Shown here: positions 12,001-24,000 of the stretch, in pieces
How positions within the stretch are numbered: the stretch's first letter is position 1
How the letters are laid out: every line of letters starts with the position of its first letter
Assembly (NCBI GenBank): GCA_039586795.1
Contig: JBDHJS010000020.1
Span: 1-57,833, forward strand
Reading direction: 5' to 3'
Length of the DNA: 57,833 nucleotides
From: Gemmatimonadota bacterium
GTDB lineage: Bacteria > Gemmatimonadota > Gemmatimonadetes > Palauibacterales > KS3-K002
Made by a program: the position numbers

Positions 12001-15000
12001 CGGCCAGCTGGCGGGTGACGGCGTAGTCGCCGGCGATGGAGGCCGTGTGGCTGGCGGAAGCGCTCTGGCCTTCAGCCGTACGGCCAGCACGGTAGAGAAC
12101 GATGGTCTTGCCACGCTTGGATATTTCCCGCGCCGCGCTCAGGAAGCGCGCCCCATCCAGCGGTTGAAACCCCTCGACGTAGATGGCGAATATCTCGAGC
12201 TTCGGGTCATCCTTCAGATACGCCAGGTAGTCCCCGATGGTCAGGTCGGTTTGGTTGCCGACGGAGATGGCGTAACGGGGCGCCAGCCCGACCTTACCGC
12301 CTTTCGCTCCGTAAAAAGCCCCGCTCTGCGAGATGTAGGCGATGGGCGCCAGCGGCGCTTCGGGCATCGGTAGCTTTCGCTCCGGCAAAAACGTTGTGTC
12401 GTAACGGCCGGGCACCGATCGAACGCCCATGGAGTTCGCGCCGACCAGCAGCGGGCCACGCCAGTCACTGTCCCTAGCCTTGGCCAGAGCGTGGTGCAGC
12501 TTCTCCACGATCGCTGTGGACCCTTCTGTCTCACCTATGCCACCGGGAATGAGAACAACGTTCTCGGCCAGTTGCTTCTCTAATATGACGGCGAGCATCT
12601 CGGGGACTTGTCCGGCGGCGACGGCGAGCACGAGTTTGTCGACCTTTTCGGGCAGCGACTCCAAATCGGGATAGCATGCGCACCCTTCGATCGTGTCCGA
12701 GCCCGGCTTCACGACGTAGACGCGCTCGCGCTCGAACCCGGCACGCAGCGTGTTGATCAGACTTACGCGACCCGGGTTCATTCGCTCCGACACGCCAACA
12801 AACGCGATTGACTTGGGTTCGAACAGGTTCTTTAGCTTGCGAACAGGGCGGCTAGCCGGCTTCGCGGCTGTGGCCAGCGCGCACCTAGCGAGCACGTCGA
12901 GAGGTACGAGCCGCCCCTCGGAGATGACGAACGGGTTCACCTCGAACTCGCTAAGAACGTCTGGCATCGTCTCCCGCGCCAACGCGCCGAACTTCAGGAG
13001 GGTCTCGATGATCTGGTGCATCGCGATCCGCTCGTCCTGCCCACGTAGCTCTCCGGTTAGCAGCTTGGTAACTGCGACCCCGCGGATCAACGCCTCAGCG
13101 CTCGCCGGACTCAGGTCCTCTGCCGACGCAATGGCCACATCCCGGCTGGCCCTGAAGTTCTCAGCCAGGAATTCCGTGTAGACCCCACCCGCGCCGTAGG
13201 TGACGACAGGGCCGAAATCGTCCGTCCATCGAGCACTCATCAACAATTCGCCGCCGAGCGACGGGTCGTATTCAACGCACTCGACCAACAGGTATCCGCG
13301 CACATCCCGGCCGTCGAACGCCTCCTCCATAGACTGGATCGTCTGTTTGACGCTGTTGACCTCTTTTGCCGCGAAGACGACGCCACCCTCGTCGCTCTTG
13401 TGAAGCACCTCGGGCGATACGACTTTGACGACGACTTCAAAGCCCGGAAGCGCCCGCAGGTCGCCCTCGCCCAACTGCGCCGCGTCACGTACGAAGACGC
13501 ACTCCGGCACCGCGATGCCAATGGCACGGAGTAGCTCTAATCCCTCTGTTTCTAGAAGATTGTCCCGCCCGTCGGACCGGGCAGCCTCAACGATCTTGGC
13601 AGGGCTCCTACCGCTCACCACTCACCACCTACCACCCACCACCTACCTCACCCTCCACACCGTATCAATCACCGTCCCATCCACCCACTTGATCACCGCC
13701 ACCGGCTCGTCGGTCAAAGCTGCCTTCGCCGGCGGCCCACCCACCATCTTCTCCACCTCTTCCTTGATCTCCTCGATGGGCCGAATCGGCAAGTTCGATC
13801 CCTTCACGGCATCAAGCAAATCCGTGCGTCGCGGATTGATCGCCAATCCGCGTTCGGTGGCGATCACGTCGATCAGCTCGCCGGGCCCAGTCACGGTGGT
13901 GACCTCGTCGAGGAGCACGGGGATGCGGTCGCGGAACGACGGGACGGCGAGGATCGTGCAGCCGGAGGACAGGCAGTTCTGCCAGCCGCCGATGCCGTGG
14001 AGCAGCACGCCGTCGGAGTGGGTGTTGACGTTGGCGTTGAAGTTGACATCGACTTCTGTGGCGCCGAGAACCACGGCGTCGACCATCGATGCGAAGTTGC
14101 CCTTGCCGTGGTAGTTGTAGGAGGTGAAGGGCGACGTCGCGATGTGGCGCGGGTCGGAGGCGATGGACTCGACGGCGGCCAGGTCGAATGTCTGGCCGTC
14201 GAGGATGTAGTCGGTGTAGCCCTCGTTCAGCAGGTCGACCAGGTACTGGGTCGAGCCGCCGCGGACGAAGCGCGCTTTAACTCCGGCCTCCTTCATCATC
14301 TCCTTCAAGAAACCGACGAAGGCCAGGGCGATACCGCCGGCGCCGGCCTGGAACGAGAAGCCGTCCTTCATGATCCCGGCTTCTTTGAGGAAGCGGGCCA
14401 CGTACTCGGCGATGAGCAGGCGGTCAGGACTCTTTGTGATCTGCGTAGTGCCGGAGACGATCTTCGACGGGTCGCCGATGGAATCGACCTCGACGACGCA
14501 GTCGACGTTATTGCCCTGGATCTGCCACGGGATGCAAGGGAAGGGGACCAGGTTATCGGTGACGACGATAACGTGATCGGCGTAGATCGAGTCGGCCAGC
14601 GCGAAGCCGAGAGATCCGCAGGCCGACGGTCCGTGGGACCCGTCGGAGTTGCCGAACGGGTCGGCGGTGGGCGCGGCGATCACGGCGATGTCGATGTGGA
14701 CCTCGCCGTCCTGGATCGCTTGCCAGCGGCCGCCGTGGGAGCGGAGAACGCCCATGCCGCGCATCTTCCCCTCGGAGCAATAGCGGCCCAGCGGGCCGTT
14801 CATGCTGCCTTCGATATGATGGACGACGCCTTGGTCCATCAGGTCGATCACCGGGGCGTGGCAGGGGAAGGAGGCGCTGGGCAGCCACATGAGGTCTTTG
14901 GCGCCCAGTTCAGCGGCGGCGTTGAGGGCCAACAGGGCGACCTCGTCGCCGTTCCTCAAGTGATGGTGGGTCGAGATCGTCATGCCGTCCTTGAGACCGC

Positions 15001-21000: not shown

Positions 21001-24000
21001 TCGCTTCATGAACCGCCTGCTCACCGATGTCGCCGAATTTGAGATCAGCCGCCCACCGGCTCATCGCCGCCGTAATCGTCTCCGACATGTCTTCTCTCCC
21101 TATGCCATTAAGAACGGCGCTTCGTTAGTCACCGTCTACCGTCCACCGTCTACAGGTTCTTGAACGGCAAATACGTCATAAAATCAGCGTGATGCACGAT
21201 ATAGGCCTCGGTGCTTCGCTTCACGAGATCTCCCTCCGCCGCGTGCGCCGCTATTATATGACACACCTCGTCGGGCACACCGCACTCCATGGCGATGGAG
21301 ACGCCGGTGAACGGGTGCCTGAGCGCCTTGCCCCGATCGCTCTGTACCGCTTTCCCGTCGACCTGCTCGTATTCCAGCAGCTTGCCCACGTCGGCGAGTA
21401 TCGCGCCAGCGATCACCGTGTCCTTGTCTATCTTCAGCGCCCGGCCCAGGAACTCCTGCATCGATTCCGCCGACTTCCGGGCGACATGGACCACGCACCG
21501 CTTGTGCTCCATGAACGTCGCCGGGCAGTTGGGCACCAGCAGGGTGAACGGAATCTCGTTCAGGTCCTGCGGGTCGAGGGGGCTGCGCTCGAAGGCGAGG
21601 ACCCAAGTCTGGGTCACCTGCTCCCGCAGCTCGGGGTTGTCTATCCACTCTAGCTCCGGCCAGAGCTCTTCCACCGCTTTCCGCATAGCATCGCTCCGTG
21701 AGGTTTCCCGGCAAACGGCTGCAGGATTCGTGCAATGACGCCGGGTTGGGAGGCCCGTTCGGGCCCGCCAGCTATCCTTTTGAGCCAGCTAATCTAGGGG
21801 CTCTTTGCTGGGCTGCCTAGACATCGAAGGCGATTCGATGGAGCGGGTGGAAGGAGAGGCGAAAGGCCCCAGGCGGGGCCGGGCTTGCATGGCGTGCCGT
21901 TTCTTTCAGATTATCATGCGAAATTGCCTATCGTCACCAACGCTGGCTTCTGACATTGATTTCTAAAACTGCCGAGTACGGCCTCCGGGCCGTCATCTAC
22001 ATAGCCGGACGAGAAGACGACCAACCGGTGCGGGCGAACGAAATCGCCCACGATCTGGATGTGCCCGCTAACTATCTGTCTAAGATTCTCCATAGCATGG
22101 CCCGGGCCGGCATTTTGACATCCGGGCGGGGTCCTCGGGGGGGCTTTCGGTTGGCGAAACCGCCGGAGGAGATGAATCTGGCCGAGGTCGTCGGGCCGCT
22201 CGACCCGGCGCTGTTGGATGAGACTTGTCTGCTGGGTAATCCGTCCTGCTCGGATCACAATTCCTGCGCCGTCCATGAGCGCTGGAAACGGGTGAAGGAG
22301 CCGCTCCTGGCCTTCTTCGCCAGGACGACGGTCGCGGACGTGCTGGGCGGGGGTGCCGTCGTACCTTAGCGCTCTCAGTGGCGAAGGAACGCGGTGAGGG
22401 GACACCCGGCGATGCACCAACGCGCGGCGCTGCCGAGCTTGAGCTGTAGGCTGAGCTCTACTACCTAAATCACACAACGATAATAACTTAGCGCAACGGA
22501 CAGCTTTCGCGTACTGCTGGGGCGGTCAAATCGCGACAGAAATCACTAATAATTCCCATTATTGACACGGCTCGGGATTCTAATATGATGCCGCGGTCTA
22601 ATTCACACCCGTAGGGGAGAAATTCCTAACCACTTCAAGCATCCGGAGGGACGCGTGAGCGAGGAGCATCTCCATTCGTCGTCCGAAGGCTCGCCGGACG
22701 TCGGGGGGCACCCGAAGGGGACCCTGGCGATCGTGGGAGTCTACGGCCTGCTATTCGTGGTCGGTTGGTTGATCCTGTACTTCGCGGTATTTGTACCGCG
22801 CGGCGCACTGACTCCGTGAGGTAGCCGTGCACATCGATTTCTATGAGAGGATCTGGATGTGGGCTGCGGCGGGGATCGTCGTGATCTTCCTGGCGTCCAT
22901 GGGCTTCACGTTCTTCGGGCGAGCGATTCAGCCGCCGAGTCATGTGGAGATGATCGATCCGACGACGGTACGATCCGACGAGGAGTTCGGCAGCCCCGGA
23001 GTAACGATCAACGCCGACGGCAGCGCGACGGTTGTGGTTCAGGCGTTCATGTTCGCGTTTCTGCCGAATGAGATTCGCGTGCCGCGTGGCCGACCGGTGA
23101 CGTTCCGGATGACCAGCGCCGATGTGATCCACGGATTCCAGATCGTGGGCACGAACGGCAACACGATGGTGGTGCCGGGCTACGTCAGTCAGTTCACGAC
23201 TGAGTTCAGCCGGGCGGGTGAGTACCTGATCGTCTGCAACGAGTATTGCGGACTGGGTCATCACGTGATGTCGGCGAAGCTGATCGTGGAGGACGGAGCC
23301 GGGATGGGAGGTGCGAGATGATCGAATCGAGAAAGCTTGCACTGGCGAATCTCTGGGTCGCGATCTCGGCCTTCGGCATCGCGGCGGCGATGGCGATGAT
23401 GCAGGCGCTTTCGCGTGCCGATCTCGACCTGCCGTGGCGAACGGCGAAGATGTACTACCTGTCGGTGACGGCGCACGGTGTACTGATGGCGCTGGTCTTC
23501 ACGACATTCTTCATCATGGGGTTCGGCTACGTCGTCGCGGAGAAGACGCTGGGCCGGCCGATCACGATGAAGAAGTTCGCCTGGGGTTCGTTCTGGGTCG
23601 CGCTGATCGGGACAGCCTTTACGGCCTGGGCGATCCTGTGGGGTAAAGCGACAGTCCTCTACACGTTCTATCCGCCGCTCAAGGCGCACCCGCTGTTCTA
23701 CATCGGTGCTGCGCTGCTGGTGGTCGGCTCGTGGGGCTGGTGTTGGGTTCTCATCCATACCTACCTGACCTGGAAGCGTGAGAACCCGGGTGTTCGCACG
23801 CCGCTGGCGATGCATGGCTACATGACGACGATCATCGTCTGGATTTTGGCGACGATCGGTGTTGCGATTGAGGTTGTGGTGCTGCTGATCCCGTGGTCGC
23901 TGGGGATCACGGAGAAGATCGACCCGGTACTGGCGCGCATCCTCTTCTGGTGGTTCGGCCACCCGCTGGTCTATTTCTGGCTGCTGCCAGCCTACGTGAT

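Follow-up and report, generated by a model that had tools for sequence, protein, structure and literature searches.

The window, the whole 57,833-nucleotide stretch of Gemmatimonadota DNA that was analysed, holds six co-oriented minus-strand genes that form a genuine operon. From the upstream end, they encode an HD-fold protein of 178 residues (21150..21686; TIGR00277 HDIG score 36, cut-off 27.6), an MmgE/PrpD-family protein (19712..21088) proposed to be a cis-homoaconitate/homocitrate (de)hydratase, a fused Lys4-type homoaconitase (17695..19656, with a probable ATG start at 19635 preceded by a Shine-Dalgarno-like run), a beta-decarboxylating dehydrogenase with an HICDH-type substrate motif (16455..17705, probable ATG start at 17642), a CitD-like domain fused to a CitE lyase domain (CitDE; 15229..16443; PF06857 and PF03328), and a CitF-like transferase (13643..15232, start between 15232 and 15193; PF04223). 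All six reading frames of the homocitrate-type operon described in the genome-wide survey's note were found, and Pfam and NCBIfam profiles confirm their families. On the same strand, an ADP-forming acyl-CoA synthetase (11390..13621) lies 21 bp downstream of CitF, with a thiolase (10130-11326) and an enoyl-CoA-hydratase-like protein (8022-10178) beyond it (together 8022..11326), all assigned with the same profile collections; a divergent Rrf2-family regulator (21956..22369, plus strand; PF02082 score 113 against 30) lies at the other end. A promoter and terminator scan gave values near shuffled levels (5 versus 2.6; 13 versus 9.3).

Conservation was assessed across the 80 GTDB loci that match CitDE best, counting matches at 50% identity or more. 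CitF accompanied CitDE in 73 loci, the dehydrogenase in 67, the Lys4-like aconitase in 54, the PrpD-family gene in 49 and the HD gene in 48, close to the earlier counts of 73, 67, 58, 46 and 44; all six genes occurred together in 44 and in identical order in 41, the missing genes including those lost to short contigs, because only 38 of the 80 loci span at least 20 kb. Among genomes of the order that are at least 85% complete, 43 of 103 carry CitDE, in agreement with the prevalence of 59 in 145 noted before. The downstream genes are local extensions only, with the acyl-CoA synthetase near the operon in 5/80 loci (at least 50% identity) and the thiolase/enoyl-CoA-hydratase-like pair in 3/80. 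With clusters judged by eye, no conserved flanking genes were seen except lineage-local synteny; the Rrf2-family regulator formed no cluster recognised in three or more loci and is not a conserved neighbour. Of the benzoyl-CoA genes that had been listed as neighbours, reductase-like ones were seen at one locus (L006), where they score below equivalog cut-offs; this context is occasional rather than conserved. Within the library searched, no paper on this system turned up.

The dehydrogenase carries a SPIV motif (17346-17357) that is conserved in 63 of 63 homologues and common to the S. pombe HICDH (3ty3). At the position of Asn115, which binds isocitrate in isocitrate dehydrogenase (IDH; PMC3521221), all 63 have Ile, while the Ser113 position retains Ser (alignment anchored on Arg119); a hydrophobic residue here together with the fungal SPIV is the HICDH-type combination. 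As for the cofactor, K344/Y345 mark NADP use in IDH (PMC3521221), and the operon enzyme has the NADP-type pair K314/Y315 (16698-16703). K314, Y315, V323 and Y364 recur in 67 of 67 operon dehydrogenases, with K or R at 368, as in E. coli IDH; thus Lys-Tyr stands in all 67 in place of the NAD-type Asp-Ile loop found in T. thermophilus HICDH. The protein passes no NCBIfam cut-off, scoring best against AksF models (275 versus 540 and 272 versus 500; NF040855, 136 versus 680). The survey's note had taken an NAD-isocitrate dehydrogenase match to leave room for a citrate or methylcitrate variant. That enzyme is indeed the top PDB match, but the worry is eased because of the Ile at the Asn115 position and because the host genome has a separate IDH, which retains Ser/Asn at the substrate positions. 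The motifs point to homoisocitrate, rather than isocitrate, as the probable substrate.

The aconitase passes the homoaconitase equivalog TIGR00139 (741.1 against 529.9), reproducing the earlier 741 against 530, and scores low against the AcnA model. A role as the TCA aconitase was rejected, since the host genome has an AcnA fragment running off a contig end and an AcnA-type gene (classified by its score band and the length of its frame) is also present in 31 of the 34 order genomes with a Lys4-like gene. The homoaconitase model and the HICDH-type motif together lend support to the homocitrate-type substrates proposed before, and the Lys4-type enzyme would interconvert homoaconitate and homoisocitrate. 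Fungal homoaconitases act only on these two compounds, and aconitases perform only trans elimination, the methylcitrate dehydratase performing syn elimination (PMC3556520); a second hydratase is therefore expected, and the operon has one. On the other side, the C. albicans homoaconitase has been reported to accept (R)-homocitrate (PMC6268379).

This second protein has both MmgE/PrpD superfamily domains (PF03972 and PF19305). It is 24% identical to E. coli PrpD and fails the PrpD equivalogs widely (97 versus 950, 84 versus 575, 60 versus 458). The argument that it forms (S)-homocitrate is weakened because its closest solved relatives, nearer than PrpD, are IDS epimerase and cis-aconitate decarboxylase, and because some operon variants carry a second, HacAB-type aconitase in its place. 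A PrpD-family gene beside an aconitase could also suggest a methylcitrate-cycle variant for propionate. We regard this as very improbable, as 2-methylisocitrate is a tertiary alcohol that the operon dehydrogenase could not oxidise, the PrpD equivalogs fail, and the operon has neither PrpB nor PrpC.

Homologues of CitE and CitF adjoin, each 39% identical to its E. coli counterpart and each below its equivalog cut-off (CitE 271 versus 443; CitF, TIGR01584, 493 versus 501.45); PDB matches of CitF are 2hj0 and 1xr4. The earlier proposal of cleavage by a citrate-lyase-type enzyme is supported. In the CitD-like domain, Arg21 (16381-16383) sits, in a gap-free alignment, at the position of E. coli Ser14, which we take to be the cofactor attachment site. 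The residue is Arg in 77 and Lys in one of 78 operon CitD domains, as against Ser in 79 of 79 canonical ones; the residue that follows is variable in operon and canonical domains alike. CitC, CitG and CitX were found in none of the 80 operon loci, versus 80, 71 and 73 of 80 canonical citrate lyase loci, and gave no significant tblastn match in the host genome. CitG was likewise not found in five of five operon-carrying genomes tested, with a control query matched in 5/14. Given the Arg at the carrier-serine position and the failure to find CitC, CitG and CitX, the lyase probably works with free CoA rather than a covalent cofactor.

These same proteins could instead form a second reductive citrate module, a piece of the reverse TCA cycle leading from 2-oxoglutarate through isocitrate and citrate to oxaloacetate and acetate by a carrier-less citrate lyase. 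The IDH top match and E. coli-like NADP residues would fit, as would the citrate-enzyme families of CitE and CitF and of the ligase and citryl-CoA lyase pair described below, the transporter-linked Bacteroidota copies and the link to Rnf. Yet the invariant Ile, the Ser/Asn of the host IDH and the aconitase scores argue against it, AcnA and IDH exist separately, a second hydratase would be superfluous for citrate, and the link to lysine 6-aminotransferase, described below, would go unexplained; we consider it quite unlikely.

The HD-fold protein reads Ala-Asp at its HD dyad (A98-D99, 21390-21395) instead of His-Asp. The same holds for all 48 homologues at the loci and for 119 among 120 close homologues; the His-Asp dyad is present in 39 of 44 distant relatives. 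An alignment-based AF2 model (pLDDT 89; single-sequence AF2 was poor, at 49) indicates that the protein has the HD fold, with YhaM as best match (E 1.4e-4, TM 0.61). Atlas and homologue searches returned generic HD names only. The gene had been thought to stand in for CitG/CitX, an idea we discard: without the carrier serine nothing needs loading, and HD homologues also lie beside citryl-CoA lyase, which is directly upstream of HD in 17 of the 44 more distant HD loci. An accessory hydrolase is its most likely identity; that it repairs homocitrate lactone or a mis-formed thioester is a guess, and a doubtful one.

In these sister operons, the citryl-CoA lyase passes NF004869, with 6hxp, the Hydrogenobacter thermophilus citryl-CoA lyase, as top PDB match (E 5.5e-57). 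Succinyl-CoA-ligase-like alpha and beta subunits occur in 11 and 10 of the 44 loci, and the same-motif dehydrogenase in 10, with SPIV and HGSAPKY kept in seven of seven aligned. A ligase and citryl-CoA lyase pair runs as ATP-driven cleavage, and the cleavage direction is favoured because these operons keep HD and dehydrogenase together with such a pair.

In this phylum the operon tracks genes of lysine breakdown. Lysine 6-aminotransferase (LAT) is present in 40/43 CitDE carriers versus 2/60 non-carriers in the order, in 9/10 versus 9/231 elsewhere in the phylum, and in 39/42 versus 2/14 within Rnf-positive genomes; Pcd is present in 36/43 versus 9/60 in the order, one genus (g16) having operon and LAT with no Pcd match. 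The control, lysA, does not follow the operon (23/43 versus 42/60). In Terriglobales, LAT is found in none of 151 genomes, and PF16653 occurs in 12/21 carriers versus 7/130 non-carriers; among five carriers from other groups, LAT is above cut-off in one and split in two in another. All these counts are by genome, kin being non-independent and no species tree applied, so that Fisher tests overstate them and are not relied on, and since RnfC is present in 42 of 43 operon carriers, part of the LAT pattern is attributable to lifestyle or common descent.

In the host genome, LAT and Pcd genes elsewhere pass TIGR03251 and NF050084, making them the likely upstream source and supporting the catabolic direction suggested before; the search for a 2-aminoadipate transaminase identified no gene, with one 25% match. 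In line with DAP-type lysine synthesis, lysA is present; in this genome and four relatives, the latter without lysA, neither LysX nor thioester reductase reaches its cut-off. Separate citrate synthase, IDH and LeuB are encoded. None of the HMGL-family proteins reaches the cut-off of a homocitrate-synthase model, and the lone HMGL-family gene reaches no cut-off at all (best LeuA-type, 200 versus 517); HglS/YdcJ has no match. SucA, SucCD and a glutaryl-CoA-dehydrogenase-like gene are present, so 2-oxoadipate also has a conventional oxidative route open to it; 98 of 103 genomes carry that last gene, which is hence uninformative about direction. Isocitrate lyase (motif and tblastn) weakens the rationale that the operon makes lysine glucogenic.

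All steps of the homocitrate chemistry are reversible, and the operon might run forwards from acetyl and 2-oxoglutarate to 2-oxoadipate. The lyase would then serve as a synthase, and the yield would be NADPH, or aminoadipate destined for lysine or some other product. The 20 of 43 carriers, including four entire genera, with no lysA match would suit this, as would the reversibility of LAT, the widespread glutaryl-CoA-dehydrogenase-like gene and the failed homocitrate-synthase cut-offs. However, the low LysX and thioester reductase scores in five of five carriers, four without lysA, the 23 carriers with lysA, the tracking of the operon by Pcd, an oxidising enzyme, and the cleavage pair of the sister operons make it unlikely. 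Also rather unlikely is a reverse route fed mainly by tryptophan, by carboxylated glutaryl-CoA from aromatics or by imported homocitrate, or one for a related longer or branched tricarboxylate. It draws on the missing LAT in Terriglobales and sister-operon genomes (0/4), the L006 genes and the beta-oxidation trio in the window, a 14-residue insertion near the dehydrogenase substrate loop, and two Bacteroidota loci with a DASS/citrate transporter immediately before CitDE-CitF and no dehydrogenase or aconitase match in the available locus DNA. Set against it are the tracking of LAT and Pcd in the phylum, of LAT within Rnf-positive genomes and of PF16653 in Terriglobales, and the finding of no aromatic genes among conserved neighbours.

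On balance, we narrowly favour a reading in which the operon runs the upper aminoadipate pathway backwards, converting lysine-derived 2-oxoadipate, CO2 and NADPH to 2-oxoglutarate and acetate. Lysine would reach 2-aminoadipate through LAT and Pcd and 2-oxoadipate through a transaminase. The NADP-type dehydrogenase would carboxylate 2-oxoadipate to homoisocitrate, the Lys4-type enzyme would form cis-homoaconitate, and the PrpD-family enzyme would hydrate this to homocitrate, predicted to be (S) to suit a Si-type lyase. CitF would then transfer free CoA from acetyl-CoA to homocitrate, and CitE would cleave homocitryl-CoA to 2-oxoglutarate and acetyl-CoA, the CitD domain, having lost the cofactor serine, being probably structural. 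As bookkeeping, lysine, 2-oxoglutarate and CO2 would give two glutamate and acetate; one NADH is made and one NADPH used, therefore leaving no net electrons to dispose of, which suits anoxia.

More tentatively, and somewhat short of an even chance, we propose a widespread, undescribed CO2-fixing lysine breakdown in anaerobic or microaerobic bacteria, taking lysine to glutamate and acetate with no net electron release. It would combine an NADPH-driven 2-oxoadipate carboxylase and a homoaconitase with a PrpD-family hydratase that makes (S)-homocitrate and with a homocitrate lyase. The lyase would have arisen twice in unrelated forms, once as the carrier-less CitDE/CitF using free CoA and once as a pair made up of an ATP-dependent ligase and a citryl-CoA-lyase-type enzyme. 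If true, groups common in soils and sediments would have oxygen-independent lysine breakdown, with the first homocitrate lyase and NADP-linked homoisocitrate dehydrogenase, a citrate-lyase complex able to lose its covalent cofactor, and a hint of where fungal-type homoaconitase operates in bacteria. These genes and the sister ligase/citryl-CoA lyase set may otherwise be annotated as lysine synthesis or reverse-TCA carbon fixation. The five enzymes are soluble and their substrates obtainable, allowing direct testing.

Compared with known systems, the operon shares a Lys4-type homoaconitase, the HICDH-type SPIV and two isomerisation enzymes with the fungal upper alpha-aminoadipate pathway (homocitrate synthase, aconitase plus Lys4/LysF, Lys12), but it has a citrate-lyase-type pair instead of homocitrate synthase, a PrpD-family second hydratase and NADP-type residues; neither LysX nor aminoadipate reductase turned up in the genomes tested, and the direction is probably reversed. 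The operon resembles citrate lyase CitDEF (EC 4.1.3.6; E. coli, Klebsiella) and citramalate lyase in its CitE, CitF and CitD-like parts, and differs in the CitD-CitE fusion, the Arg at the Ser14 position, the failure to find CitC, CitG and CitX, and the linkage to a homo-type hydratase and dehydrogenase. Reductive carboxylation, isomerisation and thioester cleavage are also the logic of the reductive TCA segment with citryl-CoA synthetase and citryl-CoA lyase, and the lyase type of the Hydrogenobacter system is encoded in the sister operons beside the same HD and dehydrogenase genes; the predicted substrates here, however, are one carbon longer, and the window has CitDE/CitF. Known lysine catabolism proceeds through LAT and Pcd to 2-oxoadipate and then through glutaryl-CoA or HglS. 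The upstream enzymes are the same, whereas 2-oxoadipate is here predicted to be carboxylated and cleaved rather than decarboxylated.

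The window carries a six-gene operon on the minus strand (13643–21686) whose open reading frames encode an HD protein, a PrpD-family protein, a Lys4-type aconitase, a dehydrogenase, a fused CitD-CitE (CitDE) and CitF, separated, when probable starts are used, by anything from a few to about 75 bp. Profile matches place them in the HDIG, MmgE/PrpD, aconitase, IDH/IPMDH, ACP plus HpcH/CitE and CitF families, respectively. The genome-wide survey's note had claimed that this set is kept across phyla, and it is: among the best 80 CitDE loci in GTDB, many of them short, all six genes occur in 44 and in identical order in 41, and, counting genes at 50% identity or above, CitF is present in 73, the dehydrogenase in 67, the Lys4-like aconitase in 54, PrpD in 49 and HD in 48. 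These loci span Gemmatimonadota, Acidobacteriota, Latescibacterota, Bacteroidota, Eisenbacteria, Zixibacteria and Actinomycetota. The flanks are variable, with a downstream acyl-CoA synthetase in 5/80 loci and thiolase plus hydratase-like genes in 3/80; in the window, an acyl-CoA synthetase, a divergent thiolase and a 718-aa hydratase-like protein occupy 8022–13621, the last two being 83–91% conserved in close relatives. The operon is real and widespread, and apparently uncharacterised: a literature search found no published description of it, of a homocitrate lyase or of homocitryl-CoA, although most subscription papers and supplements lay outside its scope and an earlier description is possible. 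Elsewhere in the window, an ATP-grasp (D-Ala-D-Ala-ligase-like) and M20 peptidase fusion (5666–7834, minus strand) adjoins a gamma-glutamyltranspeptidase, and a 1122-aa protein kinase is fused to long WD40 repeats (51702–55070, minus strand).

In a gapless alignment of the carrier-site region, Ser14 of E. coli CitD, which we take to be the cofactor attachment residue, falls opposite Arg21 of CitDE. This position is Arg in 77 of 78 CitDE homologues and Lys in the other, and the adjacent serine is variable (Ser 74, Ala 2, Gly 1, Tyr 1). In a citrate lyase control set of 80 enterobacterial loci, narrow in that it represents one bacterial order, CitD has Ser in 79/79 readable sequences, followed by Gly (60) or Ser (19), and the loci carry CitC (80/80), CitX (73/80) and CitG (71/80). 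None of these three genes was found in the 80 CitDE operon loci, and the absence of CitG noted earlier held in all five carrier genomes searched. Judged from its sequence, the operon lyase is without its carrier site. PMC5534430 shows the equivalent serine in MdcC, considers the citrate lyase carrier probably similar, and demonstrates that a free CoA ester is accepted by the related MdcDE. In Bacteroidota, CitDE-CitF of the same Arg type adjoins DASS/CitMHS transporters at three loci (L019:8466-12777, L030:161-4466 and L059:835-8474), two of which gave no dehydrogenase or aconitase match within the locus DNA examined; these are possibly lyases for an imported tricarboxylate.

The operon dehydrogenase retains the catalytic Arg, Tyr, Lys and Asp of E. 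coli Icd in alignment, and an SPIV loop anchored on Arg119 is present in 63/63 full-length homologues. The homoisocitrate dehydrogenase (HICDH) of S. pombe, 3ty3, has the same SPIV in a weak local match, where isocitrate dehydrogenases (IDHs) have Ser-x-Asn. Because MAFFT placed a 14-residue insertion differently, the loop assignment depends on the arginine anchor together with the HMMER alignments. According to PMC3521221, Asn115 binds isocitrate and Lys344/Tyr345 discriminate NADP; in the operon enzymes K314, Y315, V323 and Y364 are invariant (67/67), with either Arg or Lys at position 368. A LeuB-like dehydrogenase elsewhere in the source genome (L100:6403-7476, contig C23) has Lys-His at the NADP-discriminating positions.

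With a score of 741 against a cut-off of 530, the operon aconitase passes the homoaconitase equivalog TIGR00139, whereas its scores with the AcnA models are far too low. A PrpD-family partner would fit, since PMC3556520 shows that fungal homoaconitases interconvert homoaconitate and homoisocitrate only, that elimination of water by aconitases is exclusively trans and that methylcitrate requires a syn-eliminating dehydratase. Counting against the need for such a partner, PMC6268379 gives a KM of C. albicans homoaconitase for (R)-homocitrate. A role as second hydratase is also weakened because the PrpD-family protein, 24% identical to E. coli PrpD, is nearer IDS epimerase and cis-aconitate decarboxylase. 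In Eisenbacteria and Zixibacteria CitDE/CitF loci (L024, L032, L033, L066), a fused 600-aa HacAB-type aconitase and a second one replace PrpD and Lys4, a variant left unexplained by the proposal that the PrpD-family enzyme would form (S)-homocitrate. Besides the operon, the source genome (97.8% complete) has its own genes for citrate synthase, LeuB and an NAD-type IDH-like enzyme, and a partial AcnA gene stops at a contig end; an AcnA-type match, assigned by score band and frame length, occurs among the matches listed in 31/34 Palauibacterales genomes with the Lys4-like gene. We consider it probable, with good confidence, that the operon acts on homocitrate-type chemistry.

The HD-family profile returned 80 loci, 36 of them of the window's type; the 44 with an HD protein less than 70% identical to the window's were analysed. 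In 17/44 the gene immediately upstream of HD encodes citryl-CoA lyase. Succinyl-CoA-ligase-like alpha and beta genes are present in 11 and 10 loci, 24 have LeuC/HacA-type large subunits and 10 the same dehydrogenase, and about one third have none of these genes. All three sister lyases tested pass NF004869, 6hxp being the top PDB match of the one searched, and SPIV and HGSAPKY are kept in 7/7 aligned sister dehydrogenases. Across operon types the dehydrogenase and HD are thus retained, and the lyase and hydratases swapped. Because a ligase and citryl-CoA lyase pair works with free CoA and is an established cleavage system, its presence supports free CoA use as well as the cleavage direction. 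The HD protein is modelled with an HD fold, its dyad being Ala-Asp in the window's type and His-Asp in 39/44 distant copies. Because homocitrate, unlike citrate, readily lactonises, our guess is a repair hydrolase acting on homocitrate lactone; a nucleotide phosphohydrolase is as plausible a reading. Homocitrate lactone appears as a compound in PMC6268379. Three of the distant loci have a class III aminotransferase close to HD (1/3 tested passes PRK05769). A DUF4438 gene directly precedes distant HD in L212, L223, L228, L238, L264 and L287, in two cases itself preceded by a class III aminotransferase, and an L-asparaginase II gene precedes HD in L215, L216, L221, L246 and L266.

The source genome encodes lysine 6-aminotransferase (LAT; 600 vs 521), Pcd (785 vs 730) and lysA (450 vs 298); the survey had reported the DAP lysine pathway. 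The saccharopine dehydrogenase gene of this genome carries a frameshift and seems shortened (contig C79, L098:7395-9742); it adjoins an Rnf cluster and an AlaDH/PNT-family gene, presumably lysine-ketoglutarate-reductase-like. Among 103 Palauibacterales genomes, 43 have CitDE, 42 LAT (E cut-off 1e-100; 40 of the 42 exceed the family cut-off), 40 both and 58 neither; by genus, LAT occurs in 14/14 with CitDE and 1/15 without. Outside the order, in a 261-genome phylum sample with carriers in three further families, LAT is found in 9/10 carriers and 9/231 others. Pcd follows the same pattern within the order (36/43 carriers vs 9/60 non-carriers), and lysA does not (23/43 vs 42/60). RnfC also tracks the operon (42/43 vs 14/60), and the carriers are therefore anaerobe-capable lineages; LAT still tracks it within the 56 Rnf-positive genomes (39/42 vs 2/14). 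Beyond these samples the link is weaker: LAT was found in 0/151 Terriglobales genomes, where a saccharopine/lysine-dehydrogenase-family gene, which we take to be LysDH, occurs in 12/21 carriers vs 7/130 others; it exceeds the cut-off in 1/5 carriers from other groups, being split in one more, and was found in 0/4 sister-operon genomes. The survey had reported no LysW or aminoadipate-reductase hits; in this analysis LysX and thioester reductase stayed below cut-off in 5/5 carriers, four of them without lysA.

Gene content, families, motifs, the lost serine and the co-occurrences are observed directly; we infer every reaction, and the direction. Lysine-derived 2-oxoadipate would be carboxylated with NADPH and the product isomerised to homocitrate. 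Transfer of CoA would then activate the homocitrate for cleavage into 2-oxoglutarate and acetyl-CoA, with net formation of acetate. Together with LAT, Pcd and a transaminase the sum would be lysine + 2-oxoglutarate + CO2 to 2 glutamate + acetate, redox balanced; the glutaryl-CoA route, by contrast, releases several electron pairs. Since SucA, SucCD and a GcdH-like gene are likewise present in the source genome, and a heme-copper oxidase adjoins the operon, the module would serve as an anoxic alternative and not as the sole route. Divergent from the operon, on the plus strand, lie an Rrf2 regulator and small COX2 and COX1 genes (21956–24940), presumably a ba3-like oxidase, which may share an intergenic region with it; this neighbourhood hints at oxygen-linked control. 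That the operon runs toward cleavage and is fed by lysine in this lineage, taken jointly, we judge only slightly better than an even chance. Its enzymes fall outside the canonical citrate lyase, PrpD and curated HICDH families, and by analogy the operon would work like a one-carbon-longer version of a segment of the reverse TCA cycle.
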